DNA from: a virus
Taxonomy: Duplodnaviria; Heunggongvirae; Uroviricota; Caudoviricetes
DNA length: 25,499 bases
Reading direction: 5' to 3' (one strand)
IMG/VR virus record: IMGVR_UViG_2734482552_000002
The position numbers and the translations under genes were made by a program. Below the pieces are notes generated by a model, which was not told the origin of the DNA, made no database searches, and saw nothing but the letters and a program-made list of their open reading frames with translations. Shown here one piece after another: positions 1,894 through 25,499 of this stretch. Numbering within the stretch: the stretch's first letter is position 1; the number at the start of each line of letters is the position of its first letter.

Positions 1894-5574
<3,681 letters not shown>

Positions 5575-5594
<20 letters not shown>

Positions 5595-6894
5595 TCTCCC
5601 GCATATTGCCAGCATGGCTTTTAATGAGCCGCTGATGCTTGAACCCGCCTATGCGCGGGTTTTCTTTTGTGCGCTTGCAGGCCAGCTTGGGATCAGCTGC
5701 CTGACGGATGCAGTATCCGGCGACAGCCTGACTGCCGGAGAGGCACCCGCGGCGCTGGCGTTATCCGGTGATGATGACGGACCACGACAGGCCCGCAGTT
5801 ATCAGGTAATGAACGGCATCGCCGTGCTGCCGGTGTCCGGCACGCTGGTCAGCCGGACGCGGGCGCTGCAGCCGTACTCGGGGATGACCGGTTACAACGG
5901 CATTATCGCCCGTCTGCAACAGGCTGCCAGCGACCCGATGGTGGACGGCATTCTGCTCGATATGGACACACCGGGCGGAATGGTGGCGGGAGCATTTGAC
6001 TGCGCTGACATCATCGCCCGTGTGCGTGACATAAAGCCGGTATGGGCGCTGGCCAATGACATGAACTGCAGCGCAGGTCAGCTGCTTGCCAGTGCCGCCT
6101 CCCGGCGTCTGGTCACGCAGACCGCCCGGACAGGCTCCATCGGCGTCATGATGGCTCACAGTAATTACGGCGCTGCACTGGAGAAACAGGGCGTGGAAAT
6201 CACGCTGATTTACAGCGGCAGCCATAAGGTGGATGGCAACCCCTACAGCCATCTACCGGATGATGTCCGGGAAACATTGCAGTCCCGGATGGATGCAACC
6301 CGCCGGATGTTTGCACAGAAGGTGTCGGCATATACCGGCCTGTCCGTGCAGGCTGTGCTGGATACCGAGGCTGCAGTGTACAGCGGTCAGGAGGCCATTG
6401 ATGCCGGACTGGCTGATGAACTTGTTAACAGTACCGATGCGATCACCGTCATGCGTGATGCACTGGATGCACGTAAATCCCGTCTCTCAGGAGGGCGAAT
6501 GACCAAAGAGACTCAATCAACAACTGTTTCAGCCACTGCTTCGCAGGCTGACGTTACTGGCGTGGTGCAAGCGACGGAGGGCGAGAACGCCAGCGCGGCG
6601 CAGCCGGACGTGAACGCGCAGATCACCGCAGCGGTTGCGGCAGAAAACAGTCGCATTATGGGGATCCTCAACTGTGAGGAGGCTCACGGACGCGAAGAAC
6701 AGGCACGCGTGCTGGCCGAAACCCCCGGTATGACCGTGGAAACGGCCCGCCGTATTCTGGCCGCAGCACCACAGAGTGCACAGACGCGCAGTGACACTGC
6801 GCTGGATCGTCTGATGCAGGGGGCACCGGCACCGCTGGCTGCAGGTAACCCGGCATCTGATGCCGTTAACGATTTGCTGAACACACCAGTGTAA
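5575..6894 (+). CDS. C: prohead protease / capsid assembly protein gpC
   Basis: GTG start at 5575 (VTAELRNLPHIASMAFNEPLMLEPAYARVFF...), 20-nt overlap with B as in lambda, 439 codons. The ORF-track start at 5440 is an upstream in-frame extension overlapping B. Confidence 0.9.
6289..6894 (+). CDS. nu3: scaffolding protein Nu3 (in-frame internal start within C)
   Basis: In-frame ATG at 6289 (MDATRRMFAQKVSAYTG...) giving a 201-codon product co-terminal with C, the known lambda C/Nu3 nested arrangement. Confidence 0.75.
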   Translation: MDATRRMFAQKVSAYTGLSVQAVLDTEAAVYSGQEAIDAGLADELVNSTDAITVMRDALDARKSRLSGGRMTKETQSTTVSATASQADVTGVVQATEGENASAAQPDVNAQITAAVAAENSRIMGILNCEEAHGREEQARVLAETPGMTVETARRILAAAPQSAQTRSDTALDRLMQGAPAPLAAGNPASDAVNDLLNTPV

Positions 6895-6903
6895 GGGATG
6901 TTT

Positions 6904-7236
6904 ATGACGAGCAAAGAAACCTTTACCCATTACCAGCCGCTGGGCAATAGTGACCCGGCTCATACCGCAACCGCGCCCGGCGGATTGAGTGCGAAAGCGC
7001 CTGCAATGACCCCGCTGATGCTGGACACCTCCACCCGTAAGCTGGTTGCGTGGGATGGCACCACCGACGGTGCTGCCGTTGGCATTCTTGCGGTTGCTGC
7101 TGACCAGACCAGCACCACACTGACGTTCTACAAGTCCGGCACGTTCCGTTATGAGGATGTGCTCTGGCCGGAGGCTGCCAGCGACGAGACGAAAAAACGG
7201 ACCGTGTTTGCCGGAACGGCAATCAGCATCGTTTAA
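6904..7236 (+). CDS. D: head decoration protein gpD
   Basis: 110 aa, [27 protein letters not shown]...; AAGGGA Shine-Dalgarno 5 nt upstream of ATG 6904; matches lambda gpD. Confidence 0.95.
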
Positions 7237-10708: not shown

Positions 10709-11131
10709 ATGTTCCTGAAAACCGAATCATTTGAACATAACGGTGTGACCGTCACGCTTTCTGAACTGTCAGCCCTGCAGCGTATTGAGCATCTCGACCT
10801 GATGAAACGGCAGGCAGAACAGGCGGAGTCAGACAGCAACCGGAAGTTTACTGTGGAAGACGCCATCAGAACCGGCGCTTTTGTGGTTGCGATGTCCCTG
10901 TGGCATAACCATCCGAAGAAGACGCAGATGCCGTCCATGAATGAAGCCGTTAAACAGATTGAGCAGGAAGTGCTTACCACCTGGCCCACAGAGGCAATTT
11001 CTCATGCTGAAAACGTGGTGTACCGGCTGTCCGGTATGTATGAGTTTGTGGTGAATGATGCTCCTGAACAGGCAGAGGACGCCGGGCCTGCAGAGCCTGT
11101 TTCTGCGGGAAAGTGTTCGACGGTGAGCTGA
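10709..11131 (+). CDS. G: tail assembly chaperone gpG
   Basis: 140 aa, MFLKTESFEHNGVTVTLSELSALQRIEHLDLMKRQAEQ...; matches lambda gpG. Confidence 0.95.
   Translation: MFLKTESFEHNGVTVTLSELSALQRIEHLDLMKRQAEQAESDSNRKFTVEDAIRTGAFVVAMSLWHNHPKKTQMPSMNEAVKQIEQEVLTTWPTEAISHAENVVYRLSGMYEFVVNDAPEQAEDAGPAEPVSAGKCSTVS
11107..11113 (+). promoter_or_regulatory. programmed -1 ribosomal frameshift slippery heptamer GGGAAAG (G to G-T fusion)
   Basis: GGGAAAG in the G frame (G-GGA-AAG), 6 codons before the G stop; the -1 frame continues as the T ORF. This is the conserved lambda G/T frameshift. Confidence 0.85.
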
Positions 11132-11547
11132 GTTTTGCCCTGAAACTGGCGCGTGAGATGGGGCGACCCGACTGGCGCGCCATGCTTGCCGGGATGTCAT
11201 CCACGGAGTATGCCGACTGGCACCGCTTTTACAGTACCCATTATTTTCATGATGTTCTGCTGGATATGCACTTTTCCGGGCTGACGTACACCGTGCTCAG
11301 CCTGTTTTTCAGCGATCCGGAGATGCATCCGCTGGATTTCAGTCTGCTGAACCGGCGCGAGGCTGACGAAGAGCCTGAAGATGATGTGCTGATGCAGAAA
11401 GCGGCAGGGCTTGCCGGAGGTGTCCGCTTTGGCCCGGACGGGAATGAAGTTATCCCCGCTTCCCCGGATGTGGCGGACATGACGGAGGATGACGTAATGC
11501 TGATGACAGTATCAGAAGGGATCGCAGGAGGAGTCCGGTATGGCTGA
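11113..11547 (+). CDS. T: gpT portion of the G-T frameshift fusion tail assembly chaperone
   Basis: -1 frame ORF ...FDGELSFALKLAREMGRPDWRAMLAGMSSTEYADWHRFY...; matches lambda gpT. Expressed only as a G-T fusion (10709..11547 with frameshift at 11107-11113). Confidence 0.9.
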   Translation: MFDGELSFALKLAREMGRPDWRAMLAGMSSTEYADWHRFYSTHYFHDVLLDMHFSGLTYTVLSLFFSDPEMHPLDFSLLNRREADEEPEDDVLMQKAAGLAGGVRFGPDGNEVIPASPDVADMTEDDVMLMTVSEGIAGGVRYG

Positions 11548-14101
11548 ACCGGTAGGCGATCTGGTCGTTGATTTGAGTCTGGATGCGGCCAGATTTGACG
11601 AGCAGATGGCCAGAGTCAGGCGTCATTTTTCCGGTACGGAAAGTGATGCGAAAAAAACAGCGGCAGTCGTTGAACAGTCGCTGAGCCGACAGGCGCTGGC
11701 TGCACAGAAAGCGGGGATTTCCGTCGGGCAGTATAAAGCCGCCATGCGTATGCTGCCTGCACAGTTCACCGACGTGGCCACGCAGCTTGCAGGGGGGCAG
11801 AATCCCTGGCTGATCCTGCTGCAACAGGGTGGTCAGGTTAAGGACTCCTTCGGCGGGATGATCCCCATGTTCAGGGGGCTTGCCGGCGCGATCACCCTGC
11901 CGATGGTGGGGGCCACCTCGCTGGCGGTGGCGACCGGTGCGCTGGCGTATGCCTGGTATCAGGGCAACTCAACCCTGTCCGATTTCAACAAAACGCTGGT
12001 CCTTTCCGGTAATCAGGCGGGACTGACGGCAGATCGTATGCTGGTCCTGTCCAGAGCCGGGCAGGCGGCAGGGCTGACGTTTAACCAGACCAGCGAGTCA
12101 CTCAGCGCACTGGTTAAGGCGGGGGTAAGCGGTGAGGCTCAGATTGCGTCCATCAGCCAGAGTGTGGCGCGTTTCTCCTATGCATCCGGCGTGGAGGTGG
12201 ACAAGGTCGCTGAAGCCTTCGGGAAGCTGACCACAGACCCGACGTCGGGGCTGACGGCGATGGCACGCCAGTTCCATAACGTGACGGCGGAGCAGATTGC
12301 GTATGTTGCTCAGTTGCAGCGTTCCGGCGATGAAGCCGGGGCATTGCAGGCGGCGAACGAGGCCGCAACGAAAGGGTTTGATGACCAGACCCGCCGCCTG
12401 AAAGAGAACATGGGCACGCTGGAGACCTGGGCAGACAGGACTGCACGTGCATTCAAATCCATGTGGGATGCGGTGCTGGATATTGGTCGTCCTGATACCG
12501 CGCAGGAGATGCTGATTAAGGCAGAGGCTGCGTTTAAGAAAGCAGACGACATCTGGAATCTGCGCAAGGATGATTATTTCGTTAACGATGAAGCACGGGC
12601 GCGTTACTGGGATGATCGTGAAAAAAAACGCCTGGAGCGGGATGCAGCCCAAAAGAGGGTAGATCAACAGCGTCAACAGGACAAAAATGCGCAGCAGCAG
12701 AGCGATACCGAAGCGTCACGGCTGAAATATACCGAAGAGGCGCAGAAGGCTTACGAACGGCTGCAGACGCCGCTGGAGAAATATACCGCCCGTCAGGAAG
12801 AACTGAACAAGGCACTGAAAGACGGAAAAATCCTGCAGGCAGATTACAACACGCTGATGGCGGCGGCGAAAAAGGATTATGAAGCGACGCTGAAAAAGCC
12901 GAAACAGTCCGGCGTGAAGGTGTATGCGGGCGATCGTCAGGAAGACAGTGCTCATGCGGCCCTGCTGACGCTTCAGGCAGAACTCCGGACGCTGGAGAAG
13001 CATGCCGGAGCGAATGAGAAAATCAGCCAGCAGCGCCGGGATTTGTGGAAGGCAGAAAGTCAGTTCGCGGTACTGGAGGAGGCGGCACAACGTCGCCAGC
13101 TGTCCGCACAGGAGAAATCCCTGCTGGCGCATAAAGACGAGACGCTGGAGTACAAACGCCAGCTGGCTGCACTTGGTGACAAGGTTACGTATCAGGAGCA
13201 CCTGAATGCGCTGGCGCAGCAGGCGGATAAATTCGCACAGCAGCAACGGGCAAAACGGGCAGCCATTGATGCGAAAAACCGGGGGCTGACTGACCGGCAG
13301 GCAGCGCGGGAAGCCACGGAACAGCGCCTGAAGGAACAGTATGGCGATAATCCTCTGGCGCTGAATAACGTCATGTCAGAGCAGAAAAAGACCTGGGCGG
13401 CTGAAGACCAGCTTCGCGGGAGCTGGATGGCAGGCCTGAAGTCCGGCTGGAGTGAGTGGGAAGAGAGCGCCACGGACAGTATGTCACAGGTTAAAAGTGC
13501 AGCCACGCAGACCTTTGATGGTATTGCACAGAATATGGCGGCGATGCTGACCGGCAGTGAACAGAACTGGCGCAGCTTCACCCGCTCCGTGCTGTCCATG
13601 ATGACAGAAATTCTGCTTAAGCAGGCAATGGTGGGGATTGTCGGGAGTATCGGCAGCGCCATTGGCGGGGCTGTTGGTGGCGGCGCATCCGCGTCAGGTG
13701 GTACAGCCATTCAGGCCGCTGCGGTGAAATTCCATTTTGCAACCGGGGGATTTACGGGAACCGGCGGCAAATATGAGCCAGCGGGGATTGTTCACCGTGG
13801 TGAATTTGTCTTCACGAAGGAGGCAACCAGCCGGATTGGCGTGGGGAATCTCTACCGGCTGATGCGCGGCTATGCGGAAGGTGGTTATGTGGGCGGTGCC
13901 GGAAGTCCGGCGCAGATGCGGCGGGCTGAAGGCATTAATTTTAATCAGAACAATCACGTGGTGATTCAGAACGACGGTACGAATGGTCTGCCAGGTCCAC
14001 AGATGATGAAGGCCGTGTATGACATGGCCCGCAAGGGTGCCCGTGATGAAATTCAGACACAGATGCGTGATGGTGGCCTGTTCTCCGGAGGTGGACGATG
14101 A
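11540..14101 (+). CDS. H: tail tape measure protein gpH
   Basis: 853 aa, MAEPVGDLVVDLSLDAARFDEQMARVRRHF...; same length as lambda gpH; coiled-coil-rich middle and Gly-rich C-terminal region. Confidence 0.95.
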   Translation: MAEPVGDLVVDLSLDAARFDEQMARVRRHFSGTESDAKKTAAVVEQSLSRQALAAQKAGISVGQYKAAMRMLPAQFTDVATQLAGGQNPWLILLQQGGQVKDSFGGMIPMFRGLAGAITLPMVGATSLAVATGALAYAWYQGNSTLSDFNKTLVLSGNQAGLTADRMLVLSRAGQAAGLTFNQTSESLSALVKAGVSGEAQIASISQSVARFSYASGVEVDKVAEAFGKLTTDPTSGLTAMARQFHNVTAEQIAYVAQLQRSGDEAGALQAANEAATKGFDDQTRRLKENMGTLETWADRTARAFKSMWDAVLDIGRPDTAQEMLIKAEAAFKKADDIWNLRKDDYFVNDEARARYWDDREKKRLERDAAQKRVDQQRQQDKNAQQQSDTEASRLKYTEEAQKAYERLQTPLEKYTARQEELNKALKDGKILQADYNTLMAAAKKDYEATLKKPKQSGVKVYAGDRQEDSAHAALLTLQAELRTLEKHAGANEKISQQRRDLWKAESQFAVLEEAAQRRQLSAQEKSLLAHKDETLEYKRQLAALGDKVTYQEHLNALAQQADKFAQQQRAKRAAIDAKNRGLTDRQAAREATEQRLKEQYGDNPLALNNVMSEQKKTWAAEDQLRGSWMAGLKSGWSEWEESATDSMSQVKSAATQTFDGIAQNMAAMLTGSEQNWRSFTRSVLSMMTEILLKQAMVGIVGSIGSAIGGAVGGGASASGGTAIQAAAVKFHFATGGFTGTGGKYEPAGIVHRGEFVFTKEATSRIGVGNLYRLMRGYAEGGYVGGAGSPAQMRRAEGINFNQNNHVVIQNDGTNGLPGPQMMKAVYDMARKGARDEIQTQMRDGGLFSGGGR

Positions 14102-20997: not shown

Positions 20998-21007
20998 TGG
21001 GGTGAAT

Positions 21008-24000
21008 ATGGCAGTAAAGATTTCAGGTGTACTGAAAGACGGCACAGGAAAACCGGTACAGAACTGCACAATCCAGCTGAAAGCAAAACGTAACAGCACC
21101 ACGGTGGTGGTGAACACGCTGGCCTCAGAAAATCCGGATGAAGCCGGGCGTTACAGCATGGACGTTGAGTACGGTCAGTACAGCGTTATTCTGTTGGTGG
21201 AAGGATTCCCGCCGTCACATGCCGGGACCATCACCGTGTATGAAGATTCCCGACCCGGTACGCTGAATGATTTTCTCGGTGCCATGACGGAGGATGATGC
21301 CCGTCCGGAGGCACTGCGCCGTTTTGAGCTGATGGTGGAAGAGGTGGCGCGTAACGCGTCCGCGGTGGCACAGAACACGGCAGCCGCGAAGAAATCAGCC
21401 AGCGATGCCAGCACATCAGCCCGTGAGGCGGCAACCCATGCGACTGATGCTGCAGATTCAGCACGTGCAGCCAGCACGTCAGCCGGACAGGCCGCTTCGT
21501 CGGCTCAGTCAGCGTCTTCCAGCGCAGGAACGGCATCAACAAAGGCCACTGAAGCCTCAAAAAGTGCTGCCGCTGCAGAGTCCTCAAAAAGCGCGGCGGC
21601 TACCAGTGCCGGTGCGGCGAAAACGTTAGAAACGAATGCGGCAGCGTCACAACAATCAGCAGCCACTTCTGCATCCACCGCGACCACGAAAGCGTCAGAA
21701 GCTGCCACCTCAGCCCGGGATGCGTCGGCTTCAAAAGAGGCGGCAAAATCATCAGAAACGAACGCATCATCAAGCGCCAGTAGCGCAGCTTCCTCGGCGA
21801 CGGCGGCTGCAAATTCTGCGAAGGCGGCCAAAACGTCCGAGACGAACGCCAGGTCTTCTGAAACGGCAGCGGGACAGAGTGCCTCAGCTGCGGCAGGCTC
21901 AAAAACAGCGGCTGCGTCGTCTGCCAGCGCCGCGTCAACAAGTGCCGGGCAGGCCTCAGCCAGTGCCACCGCCGCCGGAAAATCGGCAGAAAGCGCCGCA
22001 TCATCCGCTTCAACAGCCACAACGAAGGCTGGCGAAGCCACTGAGCAGGCCACGGCAGCAGCGAGGTCAGCTTCCGCAGCGAAGACATCCGAAACGAACG
22101 CGAAAGCGTCGGAAACCCGTGCAGAATCCTCAAAAACGGCTGCCGCATCGTCCGCCAGTTCGGCGGCGTCATCGGCATCATCGGCGTCTGCTTCAAAAGA
22201 TGAGGCGACCAGACAGGCGTCAGCAGCGAAGGGCAGCGCCACGACGGCATCCACGAAGGCGACAGAGGCTGCTGGTAGTGCGACGGCAGCAGCTCAGAGC
22301 AAAAGTACGGCGGAATCTGCAGCAACGCGCGCTGAGACAGCGGCAAAACGGGCAGAGGATATTGCATCCGCCGTGGCGCTTGAGGATGCGAGCACGACGA
22401 AAAAGGGGATAGTACAGCTCAGTAGTGCGACTAACAGCACTTCCGAGTCACTGGCGGCAACACCAAAAGCCGTTAAGGCCGCGTATGACCTGGCTAACGG
22501 GAAATACACCGCACAGGATGCAACGACAGCACAGAAAGGGATAATCCAGCTAAGCAGCGCGACCAACAGCACGTCTGAAACGCTGGCGGCAACGCCAAAG
22601 GCAGTAAAAGCAGCCAATGACAATGCTGAGAAACGTCTGCAGAAAGATCAGAACGGTGCGGATATCCCTGGCAAAGACACCTTTACGAAAAATATTGGTG
22701 CCTGCCGTGCCTTCGGTGGGTCAGTAAGCACAACAACAGGAAACTGGACGACTGCACAGTTTATCGAGTGGCTGGATTCTCAGGGAGCATTTAACCATCC
22801 ATACTGGATGTGCAAGGGTTCCTGGTCTTATGGCAATAATAAAATCATTACTGATACTGGCTGCGGTAATATTCATCTCGCCGGAGCTGTCATTGAAGTA
22901 ATGGGGATAAAGTCAGCGATGACGATCCGCATTACCACTCCGACCACATCCAGCGGTGGCGGAACAACCAACGCCCAGTTTACCTATATTAATCACGGAA
23001 CAGATTATTCACCTGGCTGGCGAAGGGACTATAACTCCAGAAATAAGCCAACGGCATCAGAGATCGGGGCGCTACCGTCAGGTGGAACAGCAGTATCATC
23101 AGTTAATCTGGCTTCAAAAGGTCGGGTAGCCGCGCTGACAGACAATACGCAGGGGGCAGCAGGTCTTGAGTTATACGAGGTGTATAACAACGGATATCCA
23201 ACAGCGTATGGAAATATCATTCACCTGAAAGGGATGACAGCCGTTGGCGAAGGTGAGTTACTCATCGGCTGGAGTGGTACAAGCGGTGCTCATGCTCCGG
23301 CATTTATTCGTTCACGACGGGATACGACCGACGCAAACTGGTCGCCGTGGGCGCAGCTTTACACCTCGGCTCATCCTCCTGCAGAGTTTTATCCAGTCGG
23401 TGCACCAATCCCGTGGCCATCAGATACCGTTCCGTCTGGTTATGCCCTGATGCAGGGGCAGACTTTTGACAAATCTGCTTACCCGAAACTTGCAGCCGCT
23501 TATCCGTCAGGCGTGATCCCTGATATGCGTGGCTGGACGATTAAGGGCAAGCCCGCCAGTGGTCGTGCCGTATTGTCTCAGGAACAGGATGGCATTAAAT
23601 CGCACACCCACAGCGCCAGCGCATCCAGTACGGATTTGGGGACGAAAACCACATCGTCGTTTGATTACGGCACTAAATCCACGAATAACACCGGGGCGCA
23701 TACGCACAGTCTGAGCGGCTCTACAAGTTCAGCTGGGGCCCACCAACATAGTCAGACTGGGCCCAGAACGAATAGCGGGAGTCAACCTACTGGAATGTTT
23801 CCGGCAGGGAGTACTCAAGTTAGCGGGACTAATCAGGTTGGTATCAGTGGCTCATTAACCAGTGGCACCTCCCAATGGGTAGGTAAATCATCTTCAGAAG
23901 GAAACCATACACACTCACTGTCCGGCACAGCAGCATCTGCGGGTGCACACGCGCATACTGTCGGTATTGGTGCTCATACGCACTCTGTTGCGATTGGTTC

Positions 24001-24091
24001 ACATGGACACACCATCACCGTTAACGCTGCTGGTAACGCGGAAAACACCGTCAAAAACATCGCATTTAACTATATTGTGAGGCTCGCATAA
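21008..24091 (+). CDS. stf: side tail fibre protein Stf (long form)
   Basis: ATG at 21008 ([37 protein letters not shown]...) matches the lambda Stf N-terminus. Long Ala/Ser/Thr-rich low-complexity repeat region, then a His-rich repeat region (GAHTHS / GAHAHT / GSHGHT) and the conserved ...[12 protein letters not shown]-terminus. 1027 aa from this ATG, against 774 aa for lambda Stf as I recall. Confidence 0.9.
22400..22615 (+). repeat. tandem duplication of the tail-fibre repeat motif inside stf
   Basis: Two copies of K-G-I-(V/I)[11 protein letters not shown](S/T)[11 protein letters not shown] spaced 45 codons apart (22400-22483 and 22535-22615); the DNA of the two copies differs at many synonymous positions. 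Confidence 0.8.
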
Positions 24092-24672
24092 TGGCATTCA
24101 GAATGAGTGAACAAGCACGGACCATAAAAATTTATAACCTGCTGGCCGGAACTAATGAATTTATTGGTGAAGGTGACGCATATATTCCGCCTCATACAGG
24201 TCTGCCTGCAAACAGTACCGATATTGCACCGCCAGATATTCCGGCTGGTTTCGTGGCTGTTTTCAACAGTGATGAGTCATCGTGGCATCTCGTTGAAGAT
24301 CATCGGGGTAAAACGGTTTATGACGTGGCTTCCGGCGACGCGTTATTTATTTCTGAACTCGGCTCATTACCGGAAAATGTCACCTGGTTATCCCCGGAAG
24401 GGGAGTTTCAGAAGTGGAACGGCACAGCCTGGGTGAAGGATACGGAAGCAGAAAAACTGTTCCGGATCCGGGAGGCGGAAGAAACAAAAAACAGCCTGAT
24501 GCAGGTAGCCAGTGAGCATATAGCGCCGCTTCAGGATGCTGTGGATCTGGAGATCGCAACGGAGAAAGAAACCTTGTTGCTGGAAGCTTGGAAAAAGTAT
24601 CGGGTGTTGCTGAACCGTGTTGATACATCAACTGCACCGGATATTGAATGGCCAGTAGCACCTATAGGGTAA
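24091..24672 (+). CDS. tfa: tail fibre assembly protein Tfa
   Basis: 193 aa, [54 protein letters not shown]...; matches lambda Tfa; start overlaps the stf stop (TAATG). Confidence 0.93.
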
Positions 24673-24758
24673 ATTCGTAATGATTACCTAAATACGTTAT
24701 TCTTTTGTTAAAAAAGTGATTTTGCTATAGGTAGGGAGTATGTTCTTGGATTAAGAAT

Positions 24759-24789
24759 AAAAAATCGCCATGAAAGAGCTTCATGGCGA
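24759..24789 (-). terminator. rho-independent terminator for leftward (minus-strand) transcription
   Basis: Perfect 10-bp stem TCGCCATGAA / TTCATGGCGA with a 5-nt loop (24765-24789), immediately preceded on the plus strand by AAAAAA (24759-24764), that is a U-run on the minus-strand transcript. Confidence 0.6.
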
Positions 24790-25421
24790 GTACATAAACG
24801 TACAAAATGTGATGAAAGTAGAGTGGCGTAAGCCACTATATTAAGATATGACAATAGCGAAGAAAAGTAAATAACATTTTATGGACGTTTAATTGTTAAT
24901 TATAAAAACTAGAGTGCCCGATATTGTTTATCTTGCTTTAAAATAATGTACTCAAACCAAATTTTTGAGCTAAAAGCTCAAATAATATAAATGCAATAAT
25001 AATGTTTAATAAGACAATTAGCTTGCTTTGTATTTTCATTTCGGAATACTGTTAAGTAACTTTGATGACCCTAACAATAGATCGGAATTTTCTTAGAGTC
25101 AATGGTCACTGTTTTTGCTTGCAAAGCAAATGTTTTGGTGGTTATAAGTCGTCTTAATATAGTCACGCATGCAACTTGTTCCATGCGGAGATTAAAGATT
25201 GGAATATAACGCGAAGATGGAATTAAATTACATTTGCAATAATTAATTTATTATTACTCAATAATTACCGATATTATTATTGTAAATTAATCATTAGAAT
25301 GCAAAAAGAAATGTAACGGCAAAATAAGAGGACGATAGCTGAGAAAAAAGCGTGCTTTCCCAATCTGGGGCAAATCACGTCTGAATGACACCTGAAAACA
25401 GGTGGTAGCCTCAAGAAGGCT

Positions 25422-25499
25422 GGTGATGCTGCCAACTTACTGATTTAGTGTATGATGGTGTTTTTGAGGTGCTCCAGTGGCTTCTGTTTCTATCAGCTG
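25422..25499 (+). mobile_element. IS1: IS1 insertion sequence, terminal inverted repeat and start of insA (element continues beyond the window)
   Basis: GGTGATGCTGCCAACTTACTGATTTAGTGTATGATGGTGTTTTTGAGGTGCTCCAGTGGCTTCTGTTTCTATCAGCTG is the IS1 end and insA 5-prime region as I recall it. Confidence 0.85.
25477..25499 (+). CDS. insA: IS1 InsA N-terminus (partial, runs off window)
   Basis: GTG GCT TCT GTT TCT ATC AGC TG = (M/V)ASVSISC..., the start of InsA. Confidence 0.75.

Follow-up and report, generated by a model that had tools for sequence, protein, structure and literature searches.

In phage lambda, the late operon and the leftward transcription of the b region run towards each other and end at the junction between tfa and the b region. 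At quite another scale, the insertion sequence IS1 is classically known for adjacent deletions, in which one end stays fixed and nested deletions extend from the other. Here we compare with these and other described systems a 749-bp stretch of DNA (positions 24673-25421) in a 25,499-nucleotide window from a virus of the class Caudoviricetes (IMG/VR record IMGVR_UViG_2734482552_000002). The stretch is bounded on one side by the stop codon with which tfa (24091-24672) ends and on the other by an IS1 copy, at its left inverted repeat; the rest of the window, from terminase through J, lom and stf to tfa, is a lambda-like late region. As at the lambda junction, composition drops directly after tfa and a terminator is set against leftward transcription. 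The lambda b region has leftward genes, however, whereas the stretch shows none and, when translated in six frames and compared with Pfam and PHROGs, no recognisable remnants of any. A further point of comparison is patE, a gene to which the stretch leads in relatives free of IS1. PatE (z0321), encoded on O-island 8 (OI-8), is a prophage-encoded AraC-like activator of gadB, gadC, gadE and hdeAB, while LEE (enterocyte-effacement locus) genes are repressed (PMC10877973). AppY of the K-12 prophage DLP12 and PsrA/PsrB of enterohaemorrhagic Escherichia coli are AraC-like prophage cargo of the same kind, and these regulators and PatE all feed into the GAD acid-resistance network (PMC10057817; PMC10877973). 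Their genes and upstream DNA differ from those of patE, and no sequence relation between them and the 749-bp stretch was found. The stretch itself is probably junction DNA, non-coding and mosaic, that closes the late (tail-fibre) operon on its right, and not a dedicated gene or RNA locus.

A first-pass annotation, made by a model from the letters of the DNA, had described an AT-rich gap between tfa and IS1 without any open reading frame (ORF) of 60 amino acids (aa) or more, and had offered three origins for it: a moron that is regulatory or bears a noncoding RNA (ncRNA), the control region of a gene displaced by IS1, or decayed b-region DNA. The gap is as described. GC content is 31.5%, against 54.0% for the preceding 24.7 kb of the window, and there is no ORF of at least 60 aa in 24673-25421 in any frame. 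The longest open frame has 58 aa, compared with 70.5 +/- 17.6 aa in 500 dinucleotide shuffles, 25% of which were equal or shorter; the absence of long ORFs is the chance expectation for such a composition. Six-frame translations with stops masked gave nothing below E = 0.06 against Pfam and PHROGs, which leaves a decayed known gene unsupported. Nor did decayed b-region DNA fare better, with no protein-coding remnant in any frame and DNA similarity limited to four close phage relatives. When 50,697 phage records were searched by sensitive blastn, these four (mEp332, PhiR70_1 and two deposits of ev099) were the only matches; no diverged copy was returned and lambda was not found. The same kind of search against plasmids returned nothing.

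What the stretch consists of is best seen from its relatives, where homology breaks off sharply at 24839/24840, 25250/25251 and 25336/25337 and so delimits four modules. Module A (24673-24839; 33.5% GC) is the 167-bp 3′ flank of tfa, carries two hairpins and is 96-100% identical in every context examined. Module B (24840-25250; 28.7% GC) is 411 bp of AT-rich filler that accompanies tfa and A; 828 of the 5,426 complete E. coli genomes carry it, in two allelic forms of ~99% and ~94.5% identity, with no annotation among the matches listed. Module B′ (25251-25336) is only 86 bp long, has 24.4% GC, and belongs solely to the patE-type (lambda-att) lineage, in which all type I contigs have it. Module C1, at 48.2% GC, is represented by its first 85 bp (25337-25421); it comes from the right arm of serU-integrating lambdoid prophages and is truncated here by IS1. 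The outer breakpoints of B′ are the places where homology to Qin-type prophages at ydfJ stops (25250) and homology to a prophage of E. coli 042 starts (25337). From C1 onward, the IS1-free locus of strain TUM9757 (L001, 5665-6199) and the right end of the prophage beside zinT in E. coli 042 (L005) share 97% identity. Together, A and B make up 578 of the 749 bp, and they come after tfa in lambda-att prophages as well as in the Qin-type prophage L004 at ydfJ. In a second Qin-type prophage at ydfJ (L006), A alone is present, between tfaQ and a tfa 3′ remnant, and the DNA beyond 24839 is different.

Matches to one part or another of the stretch occur in 1,343 of the 5,426 complete E. coli genomes (chromosomes only), and 280 of these hold at least 80% of it; hundreds match query positions 665-749 alone, that is, the C1 part. 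Exact 20-mer and 25-mer scans found neither A nor B in 185,579 species-representative genomes. Among the E. coli matches listed, no feature is annotated on modules A to B′. Two of the four phage records do place a 'hypothetical protein' on the stretch, which in ev099 is a 55-aa minus-strand ORF (L001 5615-5782) across B′ and C1; we reject it as a gene because it crosses the B′/C1 breakpoint and is cut by IS1. The match in relatives is thus essentially one to ordinary, unannotated intergenic DNA, the outcome that the first-pass annotation had itself named as counting against its proposals, and the terminator is the sole conserved structure.

That terminator, which had been reported on the minus strand at 24759-24789, is real. 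Its stem-loop (24765-24789; TCGCCATGAA-AGAGC-TTCATGGCGA) has a stem of 10-11 bp with five G-C pairs and an energy of -15.2 kcal/mol, with z-scores of -5 to -6 against dinucleotide shuffles. On the minus strand UUUUUUAUUCUU follows the stem without a gap, with a U-run at 24764-24759 and further U-rich sequence to ~24753, so that the whole element spans 24753-24789. The plus strand has no T-run after the stem, so the site is polar, and the terminator scan calls it on the minus strand only. The other proposed elements met with mixed fortunes. The inverted repeat TTTGAGCT-AAA-AGCTCAAA at 24964-24982 is a genuine hairpin (-8.3 kcal/mol, z ~ -4), shows no variant in any allele and scores as a weak minus-strand terminator-like site. 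A hairpin proposed at 25114-25130 is matched by shuffles (-4.7 kcal/mol, z ~ 0), and one proposed at 25166-25187 is marginal, with z-scores of -1 to -2.3 and one pair broken in the Qin-type allele. An AGGGAG motif put forward as Shine-Dalgarno-like is present at 24733-24738, but it stands 1 nt from the ATG of a 4-codon ORF and is polymorphic at 24734 and 24735. A second perfect hairpin, AGTGGC-GTAA-GCCACT at 24822-24837, had been missed; it lies at the A/B boundary (-10.4/-8.9 kcal/mol, z ~ -5) and has singleton variants at 24824 and 24837.

None of this structure points to a known RNA. Rfam 15, searched at a permissive threshold, gave no match reaching its gathering score within 24673-25421; the best was MicC on the minus strand at 24751-24878, full-length and at the level of noise (22.8 bits against a gathering score of 90, E = 1.1). 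With fold z-scores of about -3 each, the two strands cannot be told apart, and no specific RNA is indicated. The three good hairpins are near-invariant across alleles, with too little variation for compensatory changes, and the terminator served as a search anchor. The idea of a regulatory or ncRNA-bearing moron gained no support from Rfam, and its candidate small RNA (sRNA) region falls partly among the more variable segments of A and B left of 25150. As regards a moron more generally, the stretch does have a deviant composition (28.7-33.5% GC in A and B against 54%) and is polymorphic for presence and absence (B occurs in L004 and not in L006). No recognisable gene accompanies these features: there is no ORF of at least 60 aa and no Pfam or PHROGs match, and the single micro-ORF that persists is an orphan, with no Shine-Dalgarno sequence ahead of it.

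In the patchwork that we favour, successive recombination events would have built the stretch from its four modules, and the minus-strand terminator would be the one working element, stopping leftward transcription that would otherwise run antisense into the tail-fibre genes. Such transcription could come from pL/int, from an IS3 remnant or from antisense transcription of patE. Most plausibly the terminator guards the tail-fibre genes against this convergent leftward transcription, and the AT-rich remainder is probably silent, H-NS-bound filler. Before IS1 arrived, the stretch would have formed the distal end of a 1.5-kb spacer upstream of patE, from which IS1 would have uncoupled it in the lineage of the window.

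Several points weigh against this account. We infer the roles of both the terminator and the filler from the sequence. Moreover, A and B are ~99% identical between the two prophage types up to ~25150, and this near-identity could mean constraint instead of recent exchange. Diversity within A and B is also uneven. We compared 64 full-length copies from IMG/VR, metagenomes and annotated genomes, which resolve into 35 alleles, with the search-anchor segments masked (the terminator mask was offset by 2 nt, covering 24763-24787 instead of 24765-24789, and the result below is unaffected). Variable columns per 40-bp bin from 24673 number 4, 4, 3, 4, 6, 7, 1, 1, 1, 3, 3, 6, 7, 13 and 5. There is thus an island of 100-160 bp, at ~24930-25070 or out to ~25090, with 3 variable sites in 120 bp against 4-7 per 40 bp in its flanks; the position-corrected permutation P for the dip ranges from 0.036 to 0.006 depending on window size. 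The island is an unexplained, modestly significant observation. Inside it sits an orphan hydrophobic ORF of 33 codons (MKIQSKLIVLLNIIIAFILFELLAQKFGLSTLF; 24938-25039, minus strand), the sole micro-ORF intact in 35 of 35 alleles. Finally, a promoter-like site, this ORF and the terminator stand in the correct order and orientation on the minus strand.

The alternatives are weighed below against what lies, or once lay, to the right of the stretch. Looking past IS1, as had been recommended at first pass, was possible by way of IS1-free relatives in which the stretch is contiguous with patE (TUM9757 [L001], the phages mEp332 [L002] and ev099 [L003], and L019, L030, L040, L042, L051 and L053). Several of these relatives are IMG/VR contigs. 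The spacer from tfa to patE is 1,505 bp long, of which 756 bp lie beyond the stretch, and it leads through a serU relic to patE on the plus strand. Beyond C1 stands the 3′ end of a tRNA-Ser gene, 66 nt long and with a CGA anticodon by direct reading; ~275 bp of core chromosome follow, then 306 bp of AT-rich DNA, then the 247-aa AraC-family gene, whose proximal upstream region has 34% GC. ARAGORN reports no complete tRNA at the tRNA-Ser fragment, and this fragment with its flank (L001 5860-6199) occurs in 5,423 of the 5,426 E. coli genomes under an annotated tRNA-Ser gene. From the anticodon and the zinT neighbourhood on the K-12 map, we take this gene to be serU. The fragment and flank are the attR junction of a serU-integrating prophage with host DNA, as it stands in situ in E. 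coli 042. We infer that a serU-integrated lambdoid phage took up attR, the host flank and patE through aberrant excision.

The gene product is YdeO/GadX-like, below every NCBIfam equivalog cutoff, and is identical at 246 of 247 positions (99.6%) to ECs0287, which is the single AraC-type regulator that the O157:H7 Sakai prophage Sp1 encodes. Sp1 is presumably the equivalent of EDL933 CP-933H/OI-8. We call the gene patE because of this identity, together with that presumed equivalence and the location of z0321 on OI-8. The ECs0287 moron shares with the IS1-free relatives the serU fragment, the flank, the proximal upstream cassette and an IS3-family remnant. In O157 the prophage that carries it is e14-like and sits at thrW, a GIY-YIG gene precedes the moron, and the cassette starts at the serU fragment, A, B, B′ and C1 being absent. 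The remnant, of an IS3-family (ISEc48-like) transposase, lies directly after patE (L001 7291-8036; L010 24850-25319) and is kept in all contexts examined (lambda-att prophage, mEp332, ev099 and O157 Sp1), and is therefore part of the mobile patE cassette. As a side observation, the viable lambdoid phages mEp332 and ev099 carry the serU attR relic and core chromosome directly upstream of patE.

In the window, patE lies outside the DNA covered, and IS1 separates the stretch from the patE side. The left end of the element (IS1A family; 25422-25499, plus strand) begins with the inverted repeat GGTGATGCTGCCAACTTACTG at 25422-25442; its transposase reads on the plus strand, and the window ends 78 bp into it. 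The left junction, ...CAAGAAGGCT / GGTGATGCTGCC..., recurs in 79 genomes. In L007 a full 768-bp IS1 (6173-6940) stands in place of L001 5750-6299, with the flanks ...CAAGAAGGCT / IS1 / CTTATTGGC... and no 9-bp target duplication. There, 206 bp of native DNA is left upstream of patE; this right junction is found in 101 genomes, including strains with the shared left junction, and patE 206 bp beyond IS1 is the commonest variant. L022 (IS1 at ~10849-11616) has the same left junction and a larger deletion, its right end abutting AATTGGGTGGATGATATG, 16 bp before the patE start codon; these 16 bp amount to the ribosome-binding site only, and the 129 matches counted for its type of junction include the L007 type. 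In both L007 and L022, patE reads in the same direction as the IS1 transposase. In L008 (STEC409; IS1 from 6173) the locus is rearranged, with htrE after IS1. IS1 thus cut the continuity between the stretch and patE and at least 550 bp were deleted. A fixed left end, nested rightward deletions and the lack of a target duplication are IS1 adjacent deletion; the window's fixed left junction and the varied right endpoints of its relatives conform to that pattern, and nothing about them is unusual.

Of the three origins offered at first pass, a control region displaced by IS1 comes closest, in that the stretch once led to patE and was cut off by IS1; yet A and B also occur without patE. A stronger version of that proposal would make the stretch functional distal control DNA of patE, for instance an H-NS nucleation site or silencer, and the IS1 insertion-deletion an adaptive de-silencing. 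Contiguity with patE in the IS1-free relatives, interrupted by IS1 in the window, speaks for it, as do an AT-rich composition like that of the proximal patE upstream region and the nested IS1 deletions that approach patE to 206 and 16 bp, the 206-bp type in 101 genomes. The related prophage regulator AppY, furthermore, is reported to depend on H-NS among other global regulators (PMC10057817). Inheritance does not follow patE, however. Most carriers of A and B are Qin-type prophages without patE, O157 Sp1 has patE without any of the four modules, and a 340-bp block of core chromosome with ordinary GC stands between the stretch and the patE promoter region. The 578 bp (of 749) formed by A and B also occur where patE does not, in Qin-type prophages, so the greater part of the stretch is tfa-linked filler and not patE-specific control DNA. 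We consider such a control function unlikely.

A second alternative would turn module B into a small leftward moron, with a promoter at 25102-25074, a 33-aa single-pass membrane peptide of the type I-toxin or small-membrane-protein kind, and the terminator at 24765-24789. The sigma-70 promoter-like site (TTGACT-17-TATTGT; 25074-25102, minus strand) agrees at 9 of 12 positions and faces both the ORF and the terminator, with which it is collinear. In the peptide, a hydrophobic run of 18 residues comes after a basic N-terminus. Its ORF lies within the low-diversity island and, as noted, survives in every allele, while each control micro-ORF is broken in some allele; AT-rich composition and a terminator are, besides, typical of phage morons. 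In being a single hydrophobic helix from a prophage with a strong terminator downstream, the candidate resembles Ibs, ShoB, Ldr, ZorO and TisB. It departs from that class in lacking a Shine-Dalgarno sequence, an identified antisense RNA, a family match and homologues beyond the locus. No Shine-Dalgarno sequence lies within 15 nt of the ATG at 25039, so the hydrophobic frame is there and the translation signals are not. Neither Pfam nor PHROGs has a family for it, and an exhaustive phmmer search of 1.84 billion representative proteins found only the peptide itself and a frameshifted variant (a tblastn search against phages was uninformative, failing even in exact carriers, most likely through low-complexity masking).

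Other observations bear on the same peptide. A T-rich strand gives hydrophobic ORFs by chance, an A24D variant exists, and gene callers picked the ORF on 2 contigs only. The terminator-like hairpin at 24964-24982 falls inside it. Across the 35 alleles, two substitutions alone inform on selection, a synonymous change and I18V. The stretch is no richer in promoter-like sites than shuffles are, with 5 found against 6.4 +/- 2.3 expected. A predicted plus-strand site at 24848-24877 (L001 5176-5205) would be a candidate start for an antisense RNA. A 17-codon ORF noted at first pass at 25002-25055 does exist, but no Shine-Dalgarno sequence precedes it and one allele has it disrupted. The 33-codon ORF is probably not expressed, and a leftward moron of this design seems to us distinctly improbable. 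We give an equally small chance to the broader claim that module B encodes an unannotated minus-strand gene, whether the 33-aa membrane peptide or a short RNA overlapping it; if true, such a gene would explain the island at ~24930-25070.

Very unlikely, finally, is a third alternative, in which the 3′ part of the minus strand is an Hfq-type sRNA of ~130 nt that starts at ~24890 and runs through a hairpin, a U-rich linker and the terminator with its U-tail: two perfect hairpins with a U-rich linker between them, an exact TATAAT at 24904-24899 (minus strand, read from the sequence) and the full-length if weak MicC match are in its favour, but that match is noise, the TATAAT site lacks an acceptable -35 and is absent from the promoter scan's output, L006 keeps module A with other DNA beyond 24839, and the presumed seed or 5′ region (24833-24912) counts among the more variable segments left of 25150, with 13 variable columns in 80 bp, which leaves an sRNA with its end at the terminator unsupported.

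The gene preceding the stretch offers a clue to how modules come to lie behind it. The conserved 3′ part of tfa matches the Rfam family IS009 (RF02111) at 24434-24632 on the plus strand, with 218 bits against a gathering score of 117 (228 bits in L001). In L004, remnants of the tfa 3′ end bracket A and B, at 4869-5000, 5592-5687 (...AWKKYRVLL...IEWPAVPVG) and 6347-6421, and in L006 one at 4169-4231 flanks A alone. Truncated tfa 3′ copies thus recur downstream in Qin-type prophages, with a different module behind each. Evidently this conserved 3′ end serves as a linker for recombination, and different cargo modules would have been stacked behind it. Because of this recurrence, 'IS009' looks like conserved coding or recombination-linker sequence and not like an RNA gene.

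Two further observations concern neighbouring DNA. The next post-tfa module of L004 (5820-6017), also seen in L034, holds a 65-aa minus-strand orphan gene, WP_000348576.1, which occurs on at least 1,000 contigs, belongs to a cluster of 185 members and has no Pfam or PHROGs match; L034 is a hybrid contig that joins the WP_000348576.1 module to the C1-serU-patE cassette. Within the window, the N-terminal third of the tail-fibre protein encoded by stf (21002-24091) is, at 21300-22500, a long low-complexity region rich in Ala, Ser and Thr with 60-63% GC, which gives 250-aa shadow ORFs in other frames on both strands.

An unannotated AT-rich gap is thus accounted for as a recombination patchwork with a terminator, of little importance in itself, and it therefore need not be chased as a new RNA or gene locus. 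Were the 33-aa ORF or an overlapping RNA real after all, it would be one more very small prophage gene, a tiny moron just after tfa in the lambdoid prophages of ~15% of E. coli genomes, missed by gene callers and by Rfam. More useful, if modestly so, are the by-products of the analysis: the tfa 3′ end as a linker, the serU relic as the footprint of cargo capture, and the IS1 deletions near patE. By bringing patE within 206 or 16 bp of the element, these deletions may alter expression of an acid-resistance regulator in ~100 sequenced strains.

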